Shown here in pieces: positions 1,746 through 17,235 of a stretch of DNA of 24,000 nucleotides. This stretch comes from Leptolyngbyaceae cyanobacterium RM1_406_9. Its GTDB lineage: Bacteria > Cyanobacteriota > Cyanobacteriia > Elainellales > Elainellaceae. Positions within the stretch are counted from its first letter, which is position 1, and every line of letters begins with the position of its first letter. The stretch spans positions 25,604 to 49,603 of the forward strand of contig JAAUQZ010000002.1 in the NCBI GenBank assembly GCA_012033355.1, given 5' to 3'. The notes under the pieces were generated by a model. The model saw nothing but the letters and a program-made list of their open reading frames with translations. It did no database searches and was not told the DNA's origin. The position numbers and the translations under genes were made by a program.

Positions 1746-2261
1746 TGTGGCAAACAGATGAAGCTGAAAGGGAGCGCACCTTACTGCCCGTTCTGCCCGC
1801 TCAACTGCACGGCGGGGATAGCGAATCAACTGGGCACTGCTGGATTGAATGGGGGGCATTAGCAACTGTTGAGGCTGGTATAGGTGAGGCTAGCGAGAGG
1901 AAGTCCGGCAAAGCTAAAAATTTACATTCTTGTCTATCTTATGCTGTTTTTTGGGGGCGATCGCACCCCATCAGGCTTTACCAGCAGCTCATGGGCAAGT
2001 CCGAAGCAGTTAAGTAAAGACAAAAATCAAGGGTTTTGATCGGCTGAACATTTTTTGGTAGCGCTCATCACATTTTTTATTTAGCTCCATTGGTAACTCT
2101 TTTACTAAGCGCTTGCAAGATTCGTTAGCAGAGCAAAGAGGCGTTCTATCGGCGCTTGAGTTGTGTTGCTTCGGGTCTTGAGCAGAGGTAAGCCGATTTA
2201 GAAACCGAAATTTAACGGGTTCTTGAGTAGGGTTCCCTCTGTTAGAGCTAGTAGAAACAAT

Positions 2262-2390
2262 TAGGTCGCTTCTAGGGTTCCGGTTTGGGTGTCATCCAAA
2301 TGGCTGGTCCGAGAGAAGCCAGCTAGCTTTTGAAAGTTCTGTTTGAGAACTTTCGGCTAGCCACACGGCGGGATAAAAGCCCGGGAGAAG
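2262..2390 (+). promoter_or_regulatory. ykkC: guanidine-I (ykkC/yxkD class) riboswitch aptamer
   Basis: All three hallmark conserved blocks of the ykkC motif are present in order: CTAGGGTTCCGG (2272-2283), GGTCCGAGAG (2306-2315) and ACACGGCGGGATAAAAGCCCGGGAGA (2363-2388). An extended internal helix (GCTAGC..GAAAGTTCT gttt GAGAACTTTC..GCTAGC) lies between them. The aptamer ends about 115 nt upstream of the first CDS. Its boundaries are approximate. Confidence 0.85.
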
Positions 2391-2430
2391 CAGTCTAGTG
2401 GCTGAGACTGTCTCCTGGGCTTTGCTTTGC
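2379..2430 (+). terminator. riboswitch expression platform: intrinsic terminator sharing its 5' arm with the aptamer 3' end
   Basis: GCCCGGGAGAagCAGTCT (2379-2396) pairs with AGACTGTCTCCTGGGC (2405-2420). That gives 16 bp with one G-U pair and a 2-nt bulge, and an 8-nt loop. TTTGCTTTG follows. The 5' arm is the conserved GCCCGGGAGA of the aptamer, so aptamer folding and terminator folding are mutually exclusive, which is ON-switch logic. Confidence 0.7.
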
Positions 2431-2504
2431 AGTTCAACTGAAAGGCGGGTTTCCCAGGACAGTCATGGAATTGGCATAATTCAACGATTTCTGGGTGATT
2501 AACT

Positions 2505-3695
2505 ATGACGGATGATCCTCTCTTTCAAAGTCCATCTAACGGACAGCAGCCTCAAACGCAGGCTCAACACGCCCTAGAGCGGGAAGCCCAGTTGCCGATG
2601 ACGGGGTGGCAGCAGGAGGTTTCTAGAGGGCTGGAGTTTGGGCTAGAGGCGGCTGAAAGTATCCGCGATCGCTCCATTCCCACCTTTTCTCGCGGTGAAT
2701 TGCCTCACTATGCAGGCATCAATACTTTCCTCAAAGCGCCTTACCTGGAAGATGTGCGAAAGGTGGGAGAATATGACGTGGCGATCGTCGGTGTGCCGCA
2801 CGATTCTGGCACTACTTACCGCCCTGGAACTCGCTTTGGACCACAGGGAATTCGCCGCATTTCTGCACTTTACACGCCCTACAACTTCGAGCTAGGCATC
2901 GACCTGCGCGAACAGATCACGCTCTGCGATGTCGGCGACATTTTTACCATTCCCGCCAACAACGAGAAGTCATTTGACCAGATTTCTAAAGGCGTTGCTC
3001 ACGTTTTCAGTTCTGGTGCATTCCCAATCATCTTAGGCGGCGATCACTCGATTGGGTTTCCGACCGTGCGCGGGGTCTGTCGGCATCTGGGCGACAAAAA
3101 AGTAGGAATTATTCACTTCGATCGCCACGTAGACACCCAGGAAACCGACCTGGACGAGCGGATGCACACCTGCCCCTGGTTTCACGCCACCAACATGAAG
3201 AATGCGCCCGCCAAAAACCTGGTGCAGCTTGGGATTGGTGGATGGCAGGTGCCGCGTCAGGGGGTGAAAGTGTGCCGCGATCGCGCCACCAACATTCTCA
3301 CCGTCACCGACATTACCGAAATGGGACTGGATGCCGCCGTAGACTTTGCCCTGGAACGCGCCCTCGATGGCACCGATTGCGTCTACATTAGCTTTGACAT
3401 TGACTGCATCGACGCGGGCTTTGTCCCTGGCACGGGCTGGCCCGAACCTGGCGGACTACTGCCCCGTGAAGCCCTCTACCTGCTCGGCAAAATCGTCCAA
3501 AAAGCGCCCGTTTGCGGACTAGAAGTGGTTGAAGTCTCACCGCCCTACGACATCAGCGATATCACCTCCCTGATGGCTACGCGAGTCATCTGTGACACGA
3601 TGGCGCATCTGGTGCTGTCGGGACAACTGCCGCGATCGCAAAAACCCGCTTACATCCACCCAGAGGCTCAGCCGGAATTGGTGGAGTGGAGCTAG
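2505..3695 (+). CDS. gdmH: agmatinase/ureohydrolase-family enzyme, predicted Ni-dependent guanidine hydrolase (GdmH-like)
   Basis: The 396-aa ORF carries the arginase/agmatinase-fold metal-ligand motifs LGGDHSIGF, HFDRHVD (DxHxD), SFDIDCID and GLEVVEVSPPYD. The guanidine hydrolase call, rather than agmatinase, rests on context. A guanidine-I riboswitch sits directly upstream and hypA/hypB-like genes sit directly downstream, as in Synechocystis sll1077-sll1079. Confidence 0.85.
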   Translation: MTDDPLFQSPSNGQQPQTQAQHALEREAQLPMTGWQQEVSRGLEFGLEAAESIRDRSIPTFSRGELPHYAGINTFLKAPYLEDVRKVGEYDVAIVGVPHDSGTTYRPGTRFGPQGIRRISALYTPYNFELGIDLREQITLCDVGDIFTIPANNEKSFDQISKGVAHVFSSGAFPIILGGDHSIGFPTVRGVCRHLGDKKVGIIHFDRHVDTQETDLDERMHTCPWFHATNMKNAPAKNLVQLGIGGWQVPRQGVKVCRDRATNILTVTDITEMGLDAAVDFALERALDGTDCVYISFDIDCIDAGFVPGTGWPEPGGLLPREALYLLGKIVQKAPVCGLEVVEVSPPYDISDITSLMATRVICDTMAHLVLSGQLPRSQKPAYIHPEAQPELVEWS

Positions 3696-3739
3696 GGAAG
3701 GGATGAGGGATGAGGGATGAGGGGTGAGGGAGGAAGGCA
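3696..3739. repeat. tandem heptanucleotide repeat (GGATGAG)3-GGGTGAG with degenerate flanks
   Basis: Read directly: gggaag ggatgag ggatgag ggatgag gggtgag ggaggaagg, starting right after the gdmH stop codon (TAG 3693-3695). Related G-rich heptamers occur at 6221-6237, 6305-6315, 15184-15205 and 16262-16299. Confidence 0.85.
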
Positions 3740-3750
3740 TTTTTCCACCT

Positions 3751-3904
3751 CATTACCAAGCTAGAGCTTGGTAATGACGGACTGGAAGTCCAGCTTCCTG
3801 CGCTAACAAGGAACCGCTCAATGGCAACAGCCCGTGGGACTCATCCCCTTCATCAAAGGAAGCTGGAGCTTCCTTGACTGCATTGCTAAGCTGGAGCTTG
3901 GCAA
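3751..3904. repeat. composite palindromic (REP/MITE-like) element, copy 1
   Basis: There are four palindromic units in the order A-B-spacer-B'-A'. They are CATTACCAAGCTagAGCTTGGTAATG (3751-3776), GGAAGTCCAGCTTCC (3784-3798), GGAAGCTggAGCTTCC (3859-3874) and TTGCTAAGCTggAGCTTGGCAA (3883-3904). The same architecture recurs at 9513-9672. Confidence 0.8.
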
Positions 3905-3975
3905 CGAGGTTATTCCGCATCTACTTCATCCAACCTGCATCTGAAAAGGACGACCGCAAATTTTGGACTTTTGCT

Positions 3976-4356
3976 ATGCATGAAACCGATATGACAAAAG
4001 CACTAATTTTAACCGTGCAAAATTGGTGGGAAGCGCAGCCAGAACGCCCCAAAATTTCTCAGGTGCATCTCACTGTCGGTCAGTTTACCTGTGTGGAACC
4101 CGTTAGCTTGCAGTTTGCCTTTGAAGTGCAGACTCGCAATACCTTTTTAGAAGCTGCCAAACTGGTGATTCAAGAAACCCCTTTGGTCGCTTTTTGTCAC
4201 CACTGTCAGCAAGAATATCGCCCCGAAATCGGCGTTCAATATGCTTGCCCTGAGTGTCGATCACCCATGGAAGACATTCGCTCAGGGCGAGAGCTAAAAA
4301 TTAATCGCATCGAATACTGTTCTGACTCTGCGGAAAGTTATGCATCAAACCTTTGA
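3976..4356 (+). CDS. ghaA: HypA-like nickel metallochaperone (GhaA-like accessory protein)
   Basis: In the ORF-track frame 3874..4356 I place the start at ATG 3976, giving [10 protein letters not shown]. The MHE N-terminus is the HypA Ni-binding signature. The zinc-site pairs CHHC and CPEC are present (FCHHCQQEY...ACPECRSP). The upstream TTG-started extension lies inside the palindromic repeat element and is unlikely to be coding. Confidence 0.85.
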
Positions 4357-5053
4357 CGCGGCTCTAGAAATTAACCTGCTTCACGCCAACCAGGAAGGAG
4401 CCGACCACAATCGCGCCCACTTTGACGCATGGGGAATCACCTGTCTGAACATCATGAGCAGCCCCGGCGCAGGTAAAACCGTACTGCTAGAAAAAACCCT
4501 GGCAGCGCTCAACCAAACGCTAAAAATCGCCGTAATTGAAGGCGACATGACAACAGAATTAGATGCCGATCGCCTACGTCAACATAATGTTCCAGTAATC
4601 GCAATTAACACGGGTCGTTCCTGTCATCTGGATTCAAAAATGGTAGCAGGAGGGCTGTACCAGTTAGAGCATCAATACAACCCTTCTGACTTTGATTTGG
4701 TGCTGGTTGAGAATGTCGGAAACCTGGTTTGCCCCGCCGAATTTGAAGTGGGAGAACACGCCAAAGTTGCGCTTTTAAGCATCACCGAAGGCGAGGACAA
4801 ACCGCTGAAATATCCGGTGATGTTTCAGGAAGCAGATTGCCTACTGATCACCAAAATGGACTTAGCGCCGCATTTAGAAATTGACGTAAATCGAATCATT
4901 GCAAACGTCCGCCAGATGAATCCAAATGTGACGATTATTCCTGTTTCTGCCAAAATCGGAGAAGGCTTAACCGCCTGGTTTGATTGGCTACAGTCACAAA
5001 TCCCTGCTGCTGAAAAGATAGCTTCTAAATTGCCAGACCTAACATCAGCGTAG
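4340..5053 (+). CDS. ghaB: HypB-like Ni-binding GTPase (GhaB-like accessory protein)
   Basis: The 237-aa ORF has the SIMIBI/G3E GTPase motifs SSPGAGKT (P-loop), [17 protein letters not shown] (NKxD-like) and VSAK. The GTPase-domain metal ligands SCHLD plus the Cys of NLVCP are present. It overlaps the 3' end of the hypA-like gene by 17 nt, which suggests translational coupling. Confidence 0.85.
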
Positions 5054-5154
5054 GTTGGGTTGAGTTAACGAAACCCAACAACACCCAATCTCTAACCAAT
5101 TCAATCACGTGAGATCTACGTTTGTTGGGTTCCGCTTTGCTTCACCCAGCCTAC
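5049..5154. repeat. GTAGG..CCTAC-bounded palindromic element with an inner hairpin
   Basis: GTAGGTTGGGT (5050-5060) is the near-perfect inverted complement of ACCCAGCCTAC (5144-5154), matching 10 of 11. The inner hairpin is GTTGGGTT (5054-5061) / AACCCAAC (5072-5079). It belongs to the same family as 9698-9779 and 20434-20484. Confidence 0.7.
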
Positions 5155-5182
5155 AGTTCTAACCTGTTTCAAAGGAGCCTGA

Positions 5183-6220
5183 ATGAGAGTTCGCAAACTA
5201 TTATCTTGGGGAATTGCTTTTCTATTTGGTTTAGTTGTTGTAGTAAGCTGTGCGCCCAACCCAGGAACCGATACAGCAACTTCTGGAACCGATACGGCTG
5301 GGGAACCTGTCGTAATGGGCTTCAGCGCTTGGCCGGGTTGGTTTCCCTGGCAGGTCGCTGAGGAGGAAGGCTTGTTTGAGCAGAACAACGTCAACGTCGA
5401 ACTGACCTGGTTTGACGGCTATCTCGATTCAATTAACGCTCTGGCGGCTGGACAGCTTGACGCAAACGCCCAAACGCTCAACGACACGATTAGCTCGATC
5501 GCGGCTGGCTCTGATCAGGTGATTGTGTTGGTAAACGACAACTCGACGGGCAACGACATGATCATCGTCAGCGAGGAAATCAACTCCATTGAAGACCTGC
5601 GCGGCAAACGAGTTGCAGCGGAAGAGGGTACAGTCGATCACTTCTTGCTGCTATTGGGGTTGCGAGATGCTGGAATGACCCAGGCAGACATTGACTTTCA
5701 GCCGTTAGAGACGGGGGCTGCCGCTGCTGCTTTTGCGGCAGGTCAGCTAGATGCAGTTGGAGTATTTGCGCCATTCACCACACAGGCTCTAGCTCGTCCA
5801 GGCAGCAAGACGCTATTTAGCTCTGCGGACTACCCCGGTGCAATTCCCGATCATTTGGTTGTGACTCGTCAAATGGTCGATGAGCGTCCTGAAGAGGTGC
5901 AAGGTCTGGTCAATACCTGGTTTGCCACGCTGGAATTTATTGAAGGCAATCAGGACAAGGCGTTTGAAACAATGGCGAAACGGGCGGGTGTGACAGTTGA
6001 TGAGTACAAGGAATATGACCAGGGCACAACTATCTTCAGCATTGAGGACAATTTGGCAGCGTTTGAACCCGGTTCAGATATGTCTTCTTTGCCCTATGCC
6101 GCTGAACAAATTAGCCAGTTCCTAGTAGAAAGCGGACTGGTTCAAGAGGCTCCCGATGTTAGCAATATTTTTGACGACCAGTTTGTCCGAGCGTATGCAG
6201 AGCAGGCAGGAAAGGGATAA
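5183..6220 (+). CDS. ABC transporter substrate-binding lipoprotein, NitT/TauT (NMT1-like) family; candidate guanidine-binding protein
   Basis: The 345-aa ORF has an AGGAG Shine-Dalgarno about 6 nt upstream of the ATG. The N-terminus MRVRKLLSWGIAFLFGLVVVVSC looks like a lipoprotein signal peptide with a VVSC lipobox. The overall composition fits aliphatic-sulfonate/nitrate-type SBPs. It sits in the operon with the matching permease and ATPase. Confidence 0.85.
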   Translation: MRVRKLLSWGIAFLFGLVVVVSCAPNPGTDTATSGTDTAGEPVVMGFSAWPGWFPWQVAEEEGLFEQNNVNVELTWFDGYLDSINALAAGQLDANAQTLNDTISSIAAGSDQVIVLVNDNSTGNDMIIVSEEINSIEDLRGKRVAAEEGTVDHFLLLLGLRDAGMTQADIDFQPLETGAAAAAFAAGQLDAVGVFAPFTTQALARPGSKTLFSSADYPGAIPDHLVVTRQMVDERPEEVQGLVNTWFATLEFIEGNQDKAFETMAKRAGVTVDEYKEYDQGTTIFSIEDNLAAFEPGSDMSSLPYAAEQISQFLVESGLVQEAPDVSNIFDDQFVRAYAEQAGKG

Positions 6221-6241
6221 GGAAAGGATGAGGGATGTTAC

Positions 6242-6288
6242 TAGATCTCGTTAGATCTCGTTCCCAGGTAGAACCTGGGAAGAGATCT
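6242..6288. repeat. direct repeat plus strong stem-loop between the SBP and permease genes
   Basis: TAGATCTCGT is duplicated in tandem (6242-6251 and 6252-6261). AGATCTCGTTCCCAGGT (6253-6269) pairs with ACCTGGGAAGAGATCT (6273-6288), giving 16 bp with a 1-nt bulge and a 3-nt loop. G-rich GGATGAGGGA motifs flank it on both sides. Confidence 0.8.
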
Positions 6289-6375
6289 AAGAGGGGAAAC
6301 GAAAGGGATGAGGGAACCAGGTCCCATCTACTACCTACCACCTACCAAGCAAAAGGCAATCTTGAGGCAAAGCAA

Positions 6376-7233
6376 ATGAGCCAATCCAGCGAATTTATTG
6401 AGCAGGAAAACGTTTCTGCTGCACCTAGAATGTTGTCGCCTACTGTGTTTTGGCGCATTGCCGAAGATATTCCTAAAAACTTGTCCTGGACGCTGATTGT
6501 TTTGTCGATCGCCATTCCAATTTCCCTCTGGTGGATCATTTCTGAATACATTGCCGCAAACTATGAAGTCTATGCAATTTTTCTACCTACACCACTGCGG
6601 ACTCTAGAAGCGCTACAGCGTCTCTGGACAGAAGGACTATTGCCGACAGACATAGCATACAGTATGTTTCGGGTCTTCAGCGGTTTCCTATTAGCGGCGA
6701 TTATTTCGGTTCCTTTGGGTGTATTGATGGGGTCGTTTGCGAGTTGGCGATCGCTCCTAGAACCGATCATTGGCATCATTCGCTATATGCCAGCCCCCGC
6801 CTTTATTCCCCTCCTAATTCTCTACTTTGGGTTAGGCGAAGTTCCTAAAATTCTGCTGATTTTCATTGGCACCCTATTTTTCAACACGCTGATGATTATG
6901 GATGCGGTGAAGTTTGTGCCCAAAGAATTAATCGAAACCACCTATACACTGGGAGGGAGACGCTTACAGGTTTTACTTCAGGTGATTTTGCCCTACATCT
7001 ATCCCAGCATTATTGATGCCTATCGCGTCAACATGGCTTCAGCCTGGAACCTGGTTATCGTGGCGGAGCTGGTTGCCGCAACGGAAGGTTTGGGTAAGCG
7101 AATTAGCATCGCTCAGCGGTTTTTGAGAACCGATGAAATTTTTGCTGGACTGATTGTAATTGGATTGATTGGTTTAGGGATCGATTTGCTATTCCGGTTG
7201 TTGTTAAAGTTTTCCTGTCGATGGGCGGCTTAA
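6376..7233 (+). CDS. ABC transporter permease (NitT/TauT family)
   Basis: In the ORF-track frame 6235..7233 I place the start at ATG 6376 (MSQSSEFIEQ...), with GAGG 8 nt upstream. The earlier part of the frame is made of the intergenic repeats. The protein has six predicted hydrophobic spans and a binding-protein-dependent permease loop (TLGGRRLQVLLQVILPYIYPSIID). Confidence 0.85.
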   Translation: MSQSSEFIEQENVSAAPRMLSPTVFWRIAEDIPKNLSWTLIVLSIAIPISLWWIISEYIAANYEVYAIFLPTPLRTLEALQRLWTEGLLPTDIAYSMFRVFSGFLLAAIISVPLGVLMGSFASWRSLLEPIIGIIRYMPAPAFIPLLILYFGLGEVPKILLIFIGTLFFNTLMIMDAVKFVPKELIETTYTLGGRRLQVLLQVILPYIYPSIIDAYRVNMASAWNLVIVAELVAATEGLGKRISIAQRFLRTDEIFAGLIVIGLIGLGIDLLFRLLLKFSCRWAA

Positions 7234-7260
7234 TCAGGTTAAAAAGCTCAATTCCTTGAA

Positions 7261-7324
7261 GGGCGTAGCATTCGGGCAAAAAATCTCGGTTTACTTCAGG
7301 GGCTATCTGGCGAATGCTGCGCCC
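7261..7324. repeat. palindromic intergenic element (14-bp stem, 36-nt loop)
   Basis: GGGCGTAGCATTCG (7261-7274) pairs with CGAATGCTGCGCCC (7311-7324), with 13 Watson-Crick pairs and one G-U. It lies between the permease and ATPase genes. Confidence 0.75.
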
Positions 7325-7400
7325 CTACGCCTGCTTTAATTTGGCTTCTAATTTTTAATTGCTACGGTTTTTTCTACTCACACTTCTCTCACTCACAGCC

Positions 7401-8177
7401 ATGCACCTTGAAGTCTCTCAACTCCATAAACAGTTTCAGACTCGAAATGGTCCGATTGTTGCACTTAAGGATATTAATCTGCACATTGAGGAGGGTGAGT
7501 TTGTTTGTGCGGTGGGTGCGTCGGGGTCTGGTAAGTCCACCCTGTTGCGGCTGATTGCTGGACTGGAAACGCCAACGGCAGGTGAGGTGCGGGTAGACGG
7601 AGTGCGCGTCACGGGGCCAGGGGCAGACCGGGGTATGGTGTTTCAGCACTACACGCTGTATCCCTGGATGACGGTTGCCAAGAATGTTGGGTTTGGGCTG
7701 AAGTTGCAGGGCATGGCTGAGAAGGAACGCCGACAGCGGGTGTCTTACTATCTGGACGTGGTGGGGCTGGCGCAGTTTGCCAAAGCCTTACCCAAAGAGC
7801 TATCGGGCGGCATGAAGCAGCGGGTGGCGATCGCCCGTGCCCTTGCCTCTCAGCCCAAAATCTTGCTGATGGACGAACCCTTTGGAGCGCTGGATGTGCA
7901 AACCAAAGAAACGATGCAGCAATTTTTGCTGCAAGTGTGGGAACGGACGCGCACCAGCATTTTCATGATTACTCACGACGTGGAGGAAGCTGTTTTTTTG
8001 TCACAGCGAATTTATGTCTTGACTTCACGCCCTGGCACCATTTTGCGTGAGGTCGTGCTGGAATTGCCAAGCCAGCGAGACTACCACATCAAGCGTCAGC
8101 CCAAGTTTCAAGACTACAAGGAGGAAATCATGGGGTTGCTGCGCGGCGAGTCGGTCGAAGCAATGGCAGCAGGGTAG
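7401..8177 (+). CDS. ABC transporter ATP-binding protein (NitT/TauT family)
   Basis: In the ORF-track frame 7359..8177 the start is probably ATG 7401 (MHLEVSQLHKQF...). It has Walker A GASGSGKST, the signature LSGGMKQR, Walker B ILLMDEPFGALD and the H-loop ITHD. Confidence 0.9.
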   Translation: MHLEVSQLHKQFQTRNGPIVALKDINLHIEEGEFVCAVGASGSGKSTLLRLIAGLETPTAGEVRVDGVRVTGPGADRGMVFQHYTLYPWMTVAKNVGFGLKLQGMAEKERRQRVSYYLDVVGLAQFAKALPKELSGGMKQRVAIARALASQPKILLMDEPFGALDVQTKETMQQFLLQVWERTRTSIFMITHDVEEAVFLSQRIYVLTSRPGTILREVVLELPSQRDYHIKRQPKFQDYKEEIMGLLRGESVEAMAAG

Positions 8178-8188
8178 TTCAGTCGGTT

Positions 8189-8461
8189 TTAAGTGGCGCA
8201 AAACTGGTTTTCGTGCAGCAAAATTTCGCCGTGATCGGGAACCCAGGCTAACCAGCGATCGCCCGAATGTTGACACAGCAAAAGTGCCTCATCAAAGCTA
8301 AAGGGATTGGGAAGCTCTAACAGATGCACCCAGGTAGACGCTTGAAACTCAGGTCGAGGAACTTCTGGGTGCCGAACGGTCTGCCCATCGCAGGCGATTT
8401 TAGGTAGATCGCACCAGCGAGATTGGGTATCGTATTCTACTGGGCAAAAGTCTAGCTGCAT
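8189..8461 (-). CDS. hypothetical protein (90 aa, Cys-containing)
   Basis: It is an ATG-initiated ORF convergent with the ABC ATPase gene. It does not overlap repeats and its codon usage looks similar to its neighbours. I recognise no domain. A perfect palindrome AACCTTGGGttCCCAAGGTT (8489-8508) lies just upstream. Confidence 0.5.
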   Translation of the reverse strand: MQLDFCPVEYDTQSRWCDLPKIACDGQTVRHPEVPRPEFQASTWVHLLELPNPFSFDEALLLCQHSGDRWLAWVPDHGEILLHENQFCAT

Positions 8462-8595
8462 ATCCTGTCTCTCAATTTAAGGAGTAAGCAACCTTGGGTT
8501 CCCAAGGTTATCCTGCCTGTTAGCGATTCTCAATGTTGCAGGACTTAGGCATTTGAAACCTAAAACCTTGATCCTCCCCAGCCCCCTTGAAAAAG

Positions 8596-8795
8596 GCTAC
8601 CGTGTACACACATCTCCTGTATCAAGCTCAACATCCTGCATTGTGCCCCCCAACCCCCCAAGTTTGGGGGACTTCCGAGCCTCGAACCGTTTCCGTAGAG
8701 CGCTCTAAACGGCTCAAAGTCCCCCAGAATTGGGGGATTTAGGGGGCGAAAAGGACTCAAACGAAGTTAGACCCGATTTGTGTGTACACGGTAGT
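8596..8795. mobile_element. non-autonomous MITE-like element with perfect 16-bp terminal inverted repeats and a 9-bp target-site duplication
   Basis: The left TIR is CTACCGTGTACACACA (8597-8612) and the right TIR is TGTGTGTACACGGTAG (8779-8794), an exact reverse complement. TTGAAAAAG directly flanks both ends (8587-8595 and 8796-8804). The interior has no credible ORF, only G/C-run hairpins such as CCCCAAGTTTGGGG and CCCCCAGAATTGGGGG. Confidence 0.7.
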
Positions 8796-9050
8796 TTGAA
8801 AAAGAGGGGAACTCCGGAAGCCCCCTTAAAAGGGTTGGGGGATCTGGCTGCGTAAGTCTTACGTTTCTTGAGAGCTAAGGCGCGGCAAGATCGTTATAAA
8901 CAGAAAATATTCTGTATTAGTTACTACAAAAATATAGAAAATTGGCTGCTGATATCAAGCAGTTGTCGCACATCTTTACGCGGAGGGCGATCGCCGCACC
9001 AAAATTGCAGTTACAATCTGTAACGAACAATGCAATAGCAGGAAAAAACC

Positions 9051-9488
9051 ATGCCTTTATCAGTTGGCACAACGGCTCCCGCCTTTACCGTCAAAGACAC
9101 CAACGGCAATACGGTTTCACTCTCCGACTACGCTGGCAAAACCGTCGTTCTGTATTTCTATCCCAAAGACGACACACCGGGCTGCACCAAAGAGGCTTGC
9201 GGCTTTCGAGATTATTACGCCGATTACCAGGGCAAAGACATTACCGTATTTGGGGTGAGCATGGATGATGAAGCGTCTCACCAAAAGTTCACCGAAAAAT
9301 ATAGCCTTCCCTTCCCGCTCCTGGCTGATGTGGACGGCGCAATGACCAAAGCCTATGACGTAGATGGCGGCGGCTATTCTAAGCGCGTTACCTATGTTGT
9401 TGATGGCGAGGGCAAAATCGCTAAAGTTTACGGCACCGTCAAGACCGATACCCATGCCAGTGACATTTTGGCTGAGCTAGCTGTCTAG
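9051..9488 (+). CDS. bcp: peroxiredoxin, BCP/PrxQ type
   Basis: The 145-aa ORF reads MPLSVGTTAPAFTVKDTNGNTVSLSDYAGKTVVLYFYPKDDTPGCTKEACGFRD. This is the canonical PrxQ/BCP active site, with the peroxidatic Cys in PGCT and the resolving Cys five residues later. Confidence 0.93.
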   Translation: MPLSVGTTAPAFTVKDTNGNTVSLSDYAGKTVVLYFYPKDDTPGCTKEACGFRDYYADYQGKDITVFGVSMDDEASHQKFTEKYSLPFPLLADVDGAMTKAYDVDGGGYSKRVTYVVDGEGKIAKVYGTVKTDTHASDILAELAV

Positions 9489-12019: not shown

Positions 12020-12020
12020 A

Positions 12021-12064
12021 GTTCTACGGAGTTCTGTGGAGTTTTATGGAGTTCTATGGAGTGA
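12021..12064. repeat. tandem 10-bp repeat, about 4.3 copies, abutting the response-regulator start codon
   Basis: The + strand reads GTTCTACGGA GTTCTGTGGA GTTTTATGGA GTTCTATGGA GTG. In gene sense this is (TCCATAGAAC)n, ending 1 nt before the ATG at 12019. A TATAAT hexamer in gene sense lies at 12075-12070. Confidence 0.85.
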
Positions 12065-16254: not shown

Positions 16255-17235
16255 TCAGGTGGGAAGTGGGGGGTGAGGAGTGGGGAGTGGGGAGTGCGAA
16301 GAGGTTTTAGTAGATTGGCGATCGCGCATTCCCAGGGCAGTAAAACAGACTAACGTACCCAGTAGGGCGGCTCCGACCGCTTGATGGGCGATGGTAAGCG
16401 GCTCAATTTGCAGATGGAAGTGGAAGGTCGCAAATCCTAACGCCACTTGGAGCAGCAGGAACCCTCCAGCCAAGTAAGATAGTCGTCGCAGAGCAGGATA
16501 GAGAGCCGGAGTACGCCAGGCTAAAATCACAACCGCCAGAGTCATCAGGCTCGCCGGGACTACACCCAGCAAATGAGTATTCATCACCTCACAAAGTTGG
16601 GAGCCTGCTAAACACTGGTGCAGCGCCCAGCGAGAACCAACCAGTGCCCCCGATAGGCTTTGCAGATAAACCAAAATTGCGGCTGTAAGGCTAACCCAGG
16701 GCAGTTTACCGACGTTACCCGTTCCCTGATAAGGCAGTAGCGCTACCCCCATCAACAGCAGAGTGGTAAAGAACAGCAGTGCCGTTCCCAGGTGGGCTGT
16801 GACGATATCAAATCGCAATAGCTGGGTAACGGTGAGTCCACCCAGAATGCCTTGAAACACAATCAGGCTAAGAGCAAGGGTAGCCACCCAGGGTGTCCAG
16901 CGGGGCAGGGCGCGACGGTGCCAGACGCTCAGGGCGACGAGGGCGATCGCCATCAGCCCAATTAGCGCTGCATCAAGCCGATGAAACCACTCTAGAAATA
17001 CCTGCAAGTTCATCTGCTGGCTGGGAACTAGAGTGCCATAGCACAGCGGCCAATCGGGGCAGGCCAGCCCTGCATTCATGACGCGAGTGGCGCTGCCGAT
17101 CGCCATCAACAGAAAAGTGGCGATCGCCATCTTCCACACCAACCGTCGAATCTGATCTTGAGGCTGAAGCGACAATTTAACTGGAGAAGAAACGGATTTT
17201 GGCATATCTTGACGGGCTGGATAGGAATCAGTCAT
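16255..17235 (-). CDS. ctaA: heme A synthase (COX15/CtaA)
   Basis: The 326-aa polytopic membrane ORF has the CPDWPLCYG motif and conserved His-containing helices ([22 protein letters not shown]). A GGAGG Shine-Dalgarno sits about 9 nt upstream of the ATG at 17235. The last 12 or so codons are encoded by a heptamer repeat. Confidence 0.9.

Follow-up and report, generated by a model that had tools for sequence, protein, structure and literature searches.

Analysis of a 24,000-nucleotide stretch of DNA (hereafter the window) indicated that positions 2261-2428 are very probably the leader of a gdmH-ghaA-ghaB(-gimABC) operon, and that this leader acts as a guanidine-I riboswitch of the transcriptional ON type. 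The initial annotation had already read the region as such a switch, a reading now supported by the overlap between the aptamer and a terminator hairpin, by the co-varying arms of that hairpin, by the guanidine operon that follows, and by an orthologous riboswitch from Synechocystis, with termination itself as the predicted outcome. The coordinates of the relevant features are collected in Table 1.

Table 1. Features of the riboswitch leader and of the operon downstream of it, in window coordinates
Feature	Position	Strand	Basis
Possible degenerate NtcA box GTAAGCCGATTTAG (GTA-N8-TAG, 5/6 consensus positions), low confidence	2188-2201	+	84 nt upstream of CTAGGG
Possible −10 element TAGGGT (TAN3T), putative	2228-2233	+	Position relative to putative NtcA box
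Guanidine-I (ykkC subtype 1) aptamer	2261-2389	+	RF00442, full-length
P1	2268-2273 with 2314-2319	+	Covariance-model alignment and fold
P1a/P1b, apical hairpin 2285-2299	2276-2310	+	Covariance-model alignment and fold
P2, extended hairpin (7 bp, UUU bulge, 9 bp, 5-nt loop)	2322-2361	+	Covariance-model structure line and fold
Long-range pair	C2364-G2384	+	Covariance-model alignment
P3	G2370-G2372 with C2380-C2382	+	Covariance-model alignment
Intrinsic-terminator hairpin (5' arm 2379-2396, 3' arm 2405-2420)	2376-2423	+	Energy and conservation
Conserved tail GGGAGA	2383-2388	+	Covariance-model alignment
Interrupted U-tract TTTGCTTT	2421-2428	+	6 T in 8
Shine-Dalgarno-like GGGTGA, 6 nt before ATG, outside switching hairpin	2493-2498	+	Read from sequence
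gdmH, Ni-dependent guanidine hydrolase (arginase family)	2505-3695	+	PDB 7esr/7oi1, Pfam Arginase
ghaA, HypA-like nickel chaperone	3976-4356	+	TIGR00100 hypA, 125.6 bits vs cut-off 88.1
ghaB, HypB-like nickel GTPase	4340-5053	+	TIGR00073 hypB, 306.8 bits vs cut-off 121.2
gimABC guanidine ABC importer	5183-8177	+	NitT/TauT-type family matches
gimABC binding protein	5183-6220	+	NitT/TauT-type match
gimABC permease, exact start uncertain	6235-7233	+	NitT/TauT-type match
gimABC ATPase, exact start uncertain	7359-8177	+	NitT/TauT-type match

Identification and anatomy of the aptamer

A cmscan search of the whole window against Rfam 15 returned RF00442 (Guanidine-I) as the sole match, which scored 84.1 bits where the gathering score is 63 (E 5.7e-14), covered model positions 1-107 of 107, and agreed with every upper-case nucleotide of the consensus. 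The covariance-model check proposed in the initial annotation was thereby passed, and a permissive Rfam scan of 2200-2520 (E up to 10) added to RF00442 only chance-level MAT2A matches and no credible family. The three conserved blocks on which the ykkC aptamer had originally been recognised, CTAGGGTTCCGG (2272-2283), GGTCCGAGAG (2306-2315) and ACACGGCGGGATAAAAGCCCGGGAGA (2363-2388), were all present, each lying where it had been placed or within one base of it, and the Guanidine-I invariant nucleotides CUAGGGUUCCG, CUGGUCCGAGAG, ACACGG and GGGAUAAAAGCCCGGGAGA were matched exactly. The window RNA is a guanidine-I riboswitch aptamer, a confirmed case of an ordinary and already described kind of RNA switch.

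The structure line of the covariance model demonstrated the presence of the three-hairpin architecture (P1/P1a/P1b, P2 and P3) plus the long-range C-G pair. An independent minimum-energy fold recovered P1, P1a, P1b and P2, while the 3-bp P3 and the long-range pair were taken from the covariance-model alignment. The helix at 2321-2362, initially described as P1b-like and unusually long, corresponds to P2 according to the Rfam structure line, and the second part of that description holds only relative to the Rfam consensus, against which the window carries a 21-nt insert: among the gdmH riboswitches considered below, its 49-nt P2 segment ranked 27 out of 67 (range 21-68 nt). In a close relative (locus L001), the distal part of P2 consists of a different sequence which still forms a hairpin.

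The terminator hairpin and its overlap with the aptamer

The hairpin that follows is composed of an outer stem in which GCCCGGGAG (2379-2387) pairs with CTCCTGGGC (2412-2420), and an inner stem in which GCAGTCT (2390-2396) pairs with AGACTGT (2405-2411). The two stems amount to 16 bp, interrupted by a 2-nt bulge and closed by an 8-nt loop, and three A-U pairs between AAA (2376-2378) and TTT (2421-2423) can extend the hairpin to as many as 19 bp. Estimates of its energy fell between about −26 and −31 kcal/mol (−26.4 to −30.9), the most stable value being obtained when the hairpin was folded alone (z = −4.6; equalled by none of 200 shuffles), and folding the entire leader to minimum energy produced the same hairpin. 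Directly 3' of it lies TTTGCTTTG, a T-rich tail broken by a G and a C. A simple terminator scan did not report the 2376-2423 hairpin, because its ungapped-stem rule bars the 2-nt bulge.

The segment GCCCGGGAGA (2379-2388), which comprises the 3' half of P3 and the conserved tail, can alternatively pair with TCTCCTGGGC (2411-2420), as had been claimed from the outset along with the 16-bp extent of the hairpin and the U-tract behind it, all of which were confirmed. Thus C2380-C2382 and G2384, whose partners in the aptamer are G2370-G2372 and C2364, respectively, find their hairpin partners within 2415-2419. Since 2379-2388 is needed both by P3 plus tail and by the hairpin, the two structures are mutually exclusive, and the proposal that the conserved 3' segment of the aptamer doubles as the 5' arm of a terminator is borne out by the occurrence of these nucleotides in both.

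When P3 and the C2364-G2384 pair were forced and the tail was blocked, the best available structure lay 20 kcal/mol above the terminator state in energy. A difference of this size in secondary-structure energies implies that control is kinetic, and is uninformative on the competition with ligand because the model omits tertiary and ligand energies. As the hairpin wins when ligand and tertiary contacts are left aside, any action of the ligand must fall within the synthesis of roughly 2389-2420.

The hairpin ends 77-84 nt upstream of the gdmH ATG and leaves the Shine-Dalgarno-like GGGTGA untouched. A function as terminator of an upstream gene was considered and ruled out: the genes upstream of the riboswitch, cobQ (1-1407, −) and an Npun_F0494-family gene (1440-1865, −), are divergent, and the hairpin therefore cannot be the terminator of either.

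Conservation of the hairpin among gdmH leaders

When genomes were scanned with GdmH, 584 matches were confirmed, and the best 80 loci among them were retained. The window GdmH was 87-98% identical to these best 80 of the 584 confirmed genomic matches, which were mostly cyanobacterial, and the closest among them came from Leptolyngbyaceae cyanobacterium SM1_4_3 (98% amino-acid identity) and FACHB-471 (97%); the source of the window is a filamentous cyanobacterium close to these two. An aptamer was located upstream of gdmH in at least 69 of the 79 orthologous loci having enough upstream sequence, a count built up from 65 loci found with a strict pattern, two more with a looser pattern, and a further two with Rfam. 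On rechecking 15 loci with Rfam, 15 of 16 pattern matches reached the gathering score (67-86 bits), and the 28 gdmH loci scanned with Rfam yielded 18 Guanidine-I matches, likewise at 67-86 bits.

The 67 aptamers detected by regular expression (66 in fetched loci plus that of the window) were then compared with respect to the hairpin. In 64 of them the first base of the hairpin was the G of GCCCGGGAGA, and 59 of these hairpins had an energy of −20 kcal/mol or stronger; in the other three the hairpin began one or two bases further in. The 64 hairpins had a median energy of −27.6 kcal/mol and a median length of 19 bp, with a median of 5 T among the 8 nt that follow, and the corresponding values for the window in the same set (−26.4 kcal/mol, 16 bp and 6 T) lie near enough to them to make it an average member. 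The U-tract is indeed interrupted, as initially reported, although its shortness is no peculiarity, 6 T in 8 against a family median of 5 being typical of the subgroup; 7 T in 8 occurred at only 4 of the 64 loci, and a T-rich run directly 3' of the hairpin was found in almost all loci.

Inner stems exhibited a mean ungapped identity between loci of only 31%, with pairing kept. After removal of nine outer positions per side, chimeras were constructed by combining 5' and 3' halves taken from different loci: the median inner-stem energy was −9.3 kcal/mol for native pairs and −3.4 kcal/mol for chimeras, of which 3.8% reached the native median. It was apparent from this far better pairing of the native inner stems that the arms of the hairpin co-vary, and such covariation supports selection for the hairpin itself. 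A fixed-register count at positions 10-13 gave 56% paired as against 45-54% with the partner slid, but carries no information, since bulge positions differ between loci; the comparison with chimeras took its place. Across loci the gdmH start codon lies 58-250 nt beyond the aptamer, which places the ribosome-binding site outside the switch.

Around one in eight gdmH loci (L004, L027, L029, L043, L058, L060, L061, L075 and L079), including those of Nostoc mirabile, Nostoc minutum, Lyngbya confervoides and Prochloron, had no RF00442 match at the gathering score in their available flanks, and gdmH is therefore not always under riboswitch control. An Acaryochloridaceae contig (L038) carried two aptamers (1082-1202 and 5058-5183): one, at 82 bits, upstream of a gimA homologue 61% identical to the window GimA, and the other upstream of gdmH, where it matched the pattern at a score below the Rfam gathering score. 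It follows from the former that in some cyanobacteria the importer has a guanidine-I riboswitch of its own. At two further loci (L040, 4817-4921, −; L070, 524-659, −), a guanidine-I aptamer was recorded on the opposite strand to gdmH, where it presumably controls a gene that diverges from it.

The downstream operon

Genes of guanidine metabolism and transport (gdmH, ghaA, ghaB and gimABC) lie immediately downstream of the riboswitch. The product of the first matched the Synechocystis protein of PDB entries 7esr and 7oi1, deposited as 'Probable agmatinase 2', over 377 residues (E 7e-237). The names of the accessory and importer genes follow a study of Synechocystis in which the arrangement gdmH-ghaA-ghaB-gimABC was described, the importer being sll1080-1082 (PMC12704784), and the operon downstream of the riboswitch is this known cyanobacterial guanidine assimilation cluster.

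Two of the spacers within the operon contain structured elements. The 280-nt gdmH-ghaA spacer (3696-3975) is filled with repeats, comprising a heptamer array (AGGGATG x4.7, 3699-3731), a perfect 13-bp palindrome (3750-3777), three copies of AAGCTGGAGCTT, and 30-nt inverted repeats at 3747-3776 and 3881-3910, and resembles short cyanobacterial repeats or MITE-like material that sits within the operon. A GTTGGGTT/AACCCAAC hairpin occupies the ghaB-gimA spacer just past the ghaB stop codon.

Beyond gimC, an 870-nt gap with no convincing gene (8178-9050) precedes a Bcp-type peroxiredoxin gene (9051-9488). The gap contains inverted repeats of the C-run/G-run type (8646-8674 with 8717-8745) and a further inverted repeat pair of 16 nt, perfect and with 166 nt between its members (8597-8612 with 8779-8794), and GTA-N8-TAC occurs in it twice in perfect form (8427 and 8914). 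Further along the window, a decamer array (AGTTCTATGG x4.3, 12020-12062) lies between response-regulator and histidine-kinase genes, and a heptamer array (GTGGGGA x5.4, 16259-16296) at the 3' end of a ctaA-like ORF (16255-17235, −).

Promoter and nitrogen control

NtcA control of gdmH has been reported for Synechocystis, with NtcA promoters before both gdmH and gimA (PMC12704784). In agreement with that report, in 39 of the 67 orthologous leaders a perfect GTA-N8-TAC occurred no more than 160 nt upstream of the aptamer, mostly 60-125 nt from CTAGGG, and usually followed about 22 nt further on by a −10-like element. The window contains four perfect matches to this NtcA consensus, none of them near the riboswitch or in front of gimA, and no NtcA box was found within 5054-5182, the region upstream of gimA. 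At the putative NtcA site of the window, the relative represented by locus L001 lacks even the GTA.

The putative −10 element TAGGGT begins 26 nt downstream of the putative NtcA box, a little more than the spacing of about 22 nt that is usual between box and −10 at NtcA-activated promoters, and its position corresponds to the TTGATAT-/TTGCTA-type −10 regions of other loci. Transcription would on this basis start near 2238-2242. The assignment is tentative, since the imperfect NtcA box leaves the window promoter uncertain.

A sigma-70-like site (2451-2480: TTCCCA, 18 nt, CATAAT, with a preceding TG) is located downstream of the terminator and ahead of the gdmH start codon, in a region where about 0.6 such matches are expected by chance. 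It is identical in locus L003 and has lost the TG in L001, and could give rise to transcripts independent of the riboswitch, with a predicted start near 2487. The degenerate GTA-N8-TAG taken together with the extended −10-like TGGCATAAT inside this site might even signify that gdmH has escaped control by nitrogen status and acquired a basal promoter independent of the riboswitch; this seems unlikely, and if true would make the riboswitch an amplifier instead of the gate in a logic of 'N limitation AND guanidine'.

Proposed mechanism and alternative explanations

The terminator mechanism envisaged for the window riboswitch, with guanidine as the ligand that this copy would be expected to bind, would be decided within the next 16-30 nt or so of synthesis after the polymerase has passed the aptamer. 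With guanidinium bound, P3 (2370-2372 with 2380-2382), the C2364-G2384 pair and the GGGAGA tail would be kept in the aptamer, so that the 3' arm (2405-2420) would be without a partner and transcription would read through into gdmH; without ligand, the 3' arm would displace the weak 3-bp P3 to form a hairpin of 16-19 bp before UUUGCUUU, and the transcript would be released. The operon is most likely transcribed only when guanidine is present. According to reviews, guanidine-I riboswitches usually act by preventing terminator formation, and the gdmH aptamer of Synechocystis binds guanidine with a Kd of about 58 µM, its 5' UTR conferring a 4-5 fold ON regulation of GFP that was abolished by a point mutant (PMC12704784).

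If the aptamer were genuine and control exerted mainly on translation or mRNA stability, for instance through refolding of the leader so as to hide the ribosome-binding site or lay bare an RNase site, the hairpin would be left with a structural or stabilising role alone. Such an explanation would accommodate the imperfect U-tract, the complementarity of CCCAGGACAGTC (2452-2463) to the terminator 3' arm, and a fold of the full 5' UTR in which strands of the aptamer pair with 2445-2520, start-codon area included; moreover, the Synechocystis reporter carried the whole 5' UTR and for that reason cannot separate transcriptional from translational control. It is nevertheless considered decidedly unlikely, given that the hairpin is clear of both GGGTGA and ATG, that the T-rich run which follows it in almost all loci would be needless in a pure stability element, and that the leader shows no conserved complementarity to either the terminator arm or the aptamer core. 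Duplexes formed by the leaders of 57 loci were no better than those of shuffled leaders (median z of +0.24 and +0.20 for terminator arm and aptamer core, respectively), and a second regulatory pairing was accordingly rejected as a conserved feature. The equivalent values for the window leader were −1.57 (terminator 3' arm) and +0.09 (aptamer core), and the pairing of CCCAGGACAGTC with the terminator 3' arm was thus neither significant in the window nor conserved in the 57 other leaders. As an observation in its own right, CCCAGGACAGTC, the complement of 2407-2419 in that arm, resembles a partial copy of the 5' arm.

Short palindromes and repeats are abundant elsewhere in the window, and the hairpin might on that account be a constitutive attenuator or a lineage-specific palindrome, overlapping the aptamer by chance and unresponsive to it. 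However, the overlap with the 3' strand of P3 is kept in 64 of the 67 aptamers detected by regular expression, across many cyanobacterial families and with changing inner stems; a chance palindrome would not keep such a register and is excluded for that reason, and the explanation as a whole is very improbable. The probability is smaller still, to the point of being barely worth entertaining, that the window RNA is a subtype 2-like variant of the ykkC fold that senses a ligand other than guanidine (ppGpp, PRPP or a nucleoside diphosphate), even though the fold and most of the conserved nucleotides are common to such variants and guanidine-I (PMC5912903, PMC6031431). The feature that separates subtype 1 is adenosine A46 (Reiss et al. 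numbering), a position taken by a pyrimidine in the ppGpp and PRPP aptamers of subtypes 2a and 2b (PMC6031431). In the window the GGUCCGAGAG block is identical to the guanidine-I (subtype 1) consensus, and the model numbering would map A46 to A2312 within it, so that the discriminating adenosine is probably present. Furthermore, conserved 5' and 3' extensions able to form P0 are absent, the 3' flank being the terminator; the gene context consists of a guanidine hydrolase and a guanidine importer; and the orthologous Synechocystis RNA binds guanidine.

Significance and comparison with known systems

The family, its ligand, the usual terminator mechanism and the association with cyanobacterial gdmH have all been published, and the window copy would be found by any Rfam-based annotation. 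With the transcriptional ON switch as the preferred reading, what is modestly useful is the conservation, in about 60 cyanobacterial gdmH leaders, of a P3-overlapping terminator with co-varying arms, as this supports a transcriptional mechanism which for the cyanobacterial representative was only inferred in the 2025 study (PMC12704784). With their varied stem strengths and U-tracts, the gdmH leaders also provide a panel of natural expression platforms for the engineering of guanidine-inducible expression.

The ykkC subtype 2 riboswitches (ppGpp, PRPP) have the overall fold, many conserved nucleotides and a common use of terminator-based ON switching in common with the window. They differ in that a pyrimidine occupies the discriminating position and conserved 5' and 3' tails form an additional P0, whereas the window exhibits the guanidine-I signature and no P0.

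The canonical guanidine-I riboswitches of Bacillus subtilis, Nitrosomonas europaea and Dickeya dadantii (Nelson et al. 2017; Reiss et al. 2017) have a three-hairpin aptamer with the same invariant nucleotides as the window. As in the window, the 3' end of their aptamer is overlapped by the 5' arm of an intrinsic terminator, with ligand leading to read-through, and the genes they control mostly encode guanidine carboxylase or Gdx/SugE exporters. These serve to detoxify guanidine, whereas the genes of the window import and hydrolyse it, and thus serve assimilation. The P2 of the window is also some 21 nt longer than the Rfam consensus, as it is in most gdmH-associated copies.

A further counterpart is the riboswitch in the 5' UTR of gdmH (sll1077) in Synechocystis sp. 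PCC 6803, validated in 2025 (Itzenhauser et al. 2025, PMC12704784). The window differs from it in belonging to another, filamentous lineage, in having an NtcA box that matches at only 5 of 6 positions, and in having none found before gimA. The likeness is one of family and gene context: the two belong to the same Rfam family, are located directly before gdmH, and are accompanied by ghaA, ghaB and gimABC, and the enzymes they regulate are nearly identical, as judged by the match to the Synechocystis structure. Both are ON switches for guanidine assimilation, that of the window putatively so. The window riboswitch is an orthologue of this published and validated riboswitch, and is already known with its usual gene context and expression platform.
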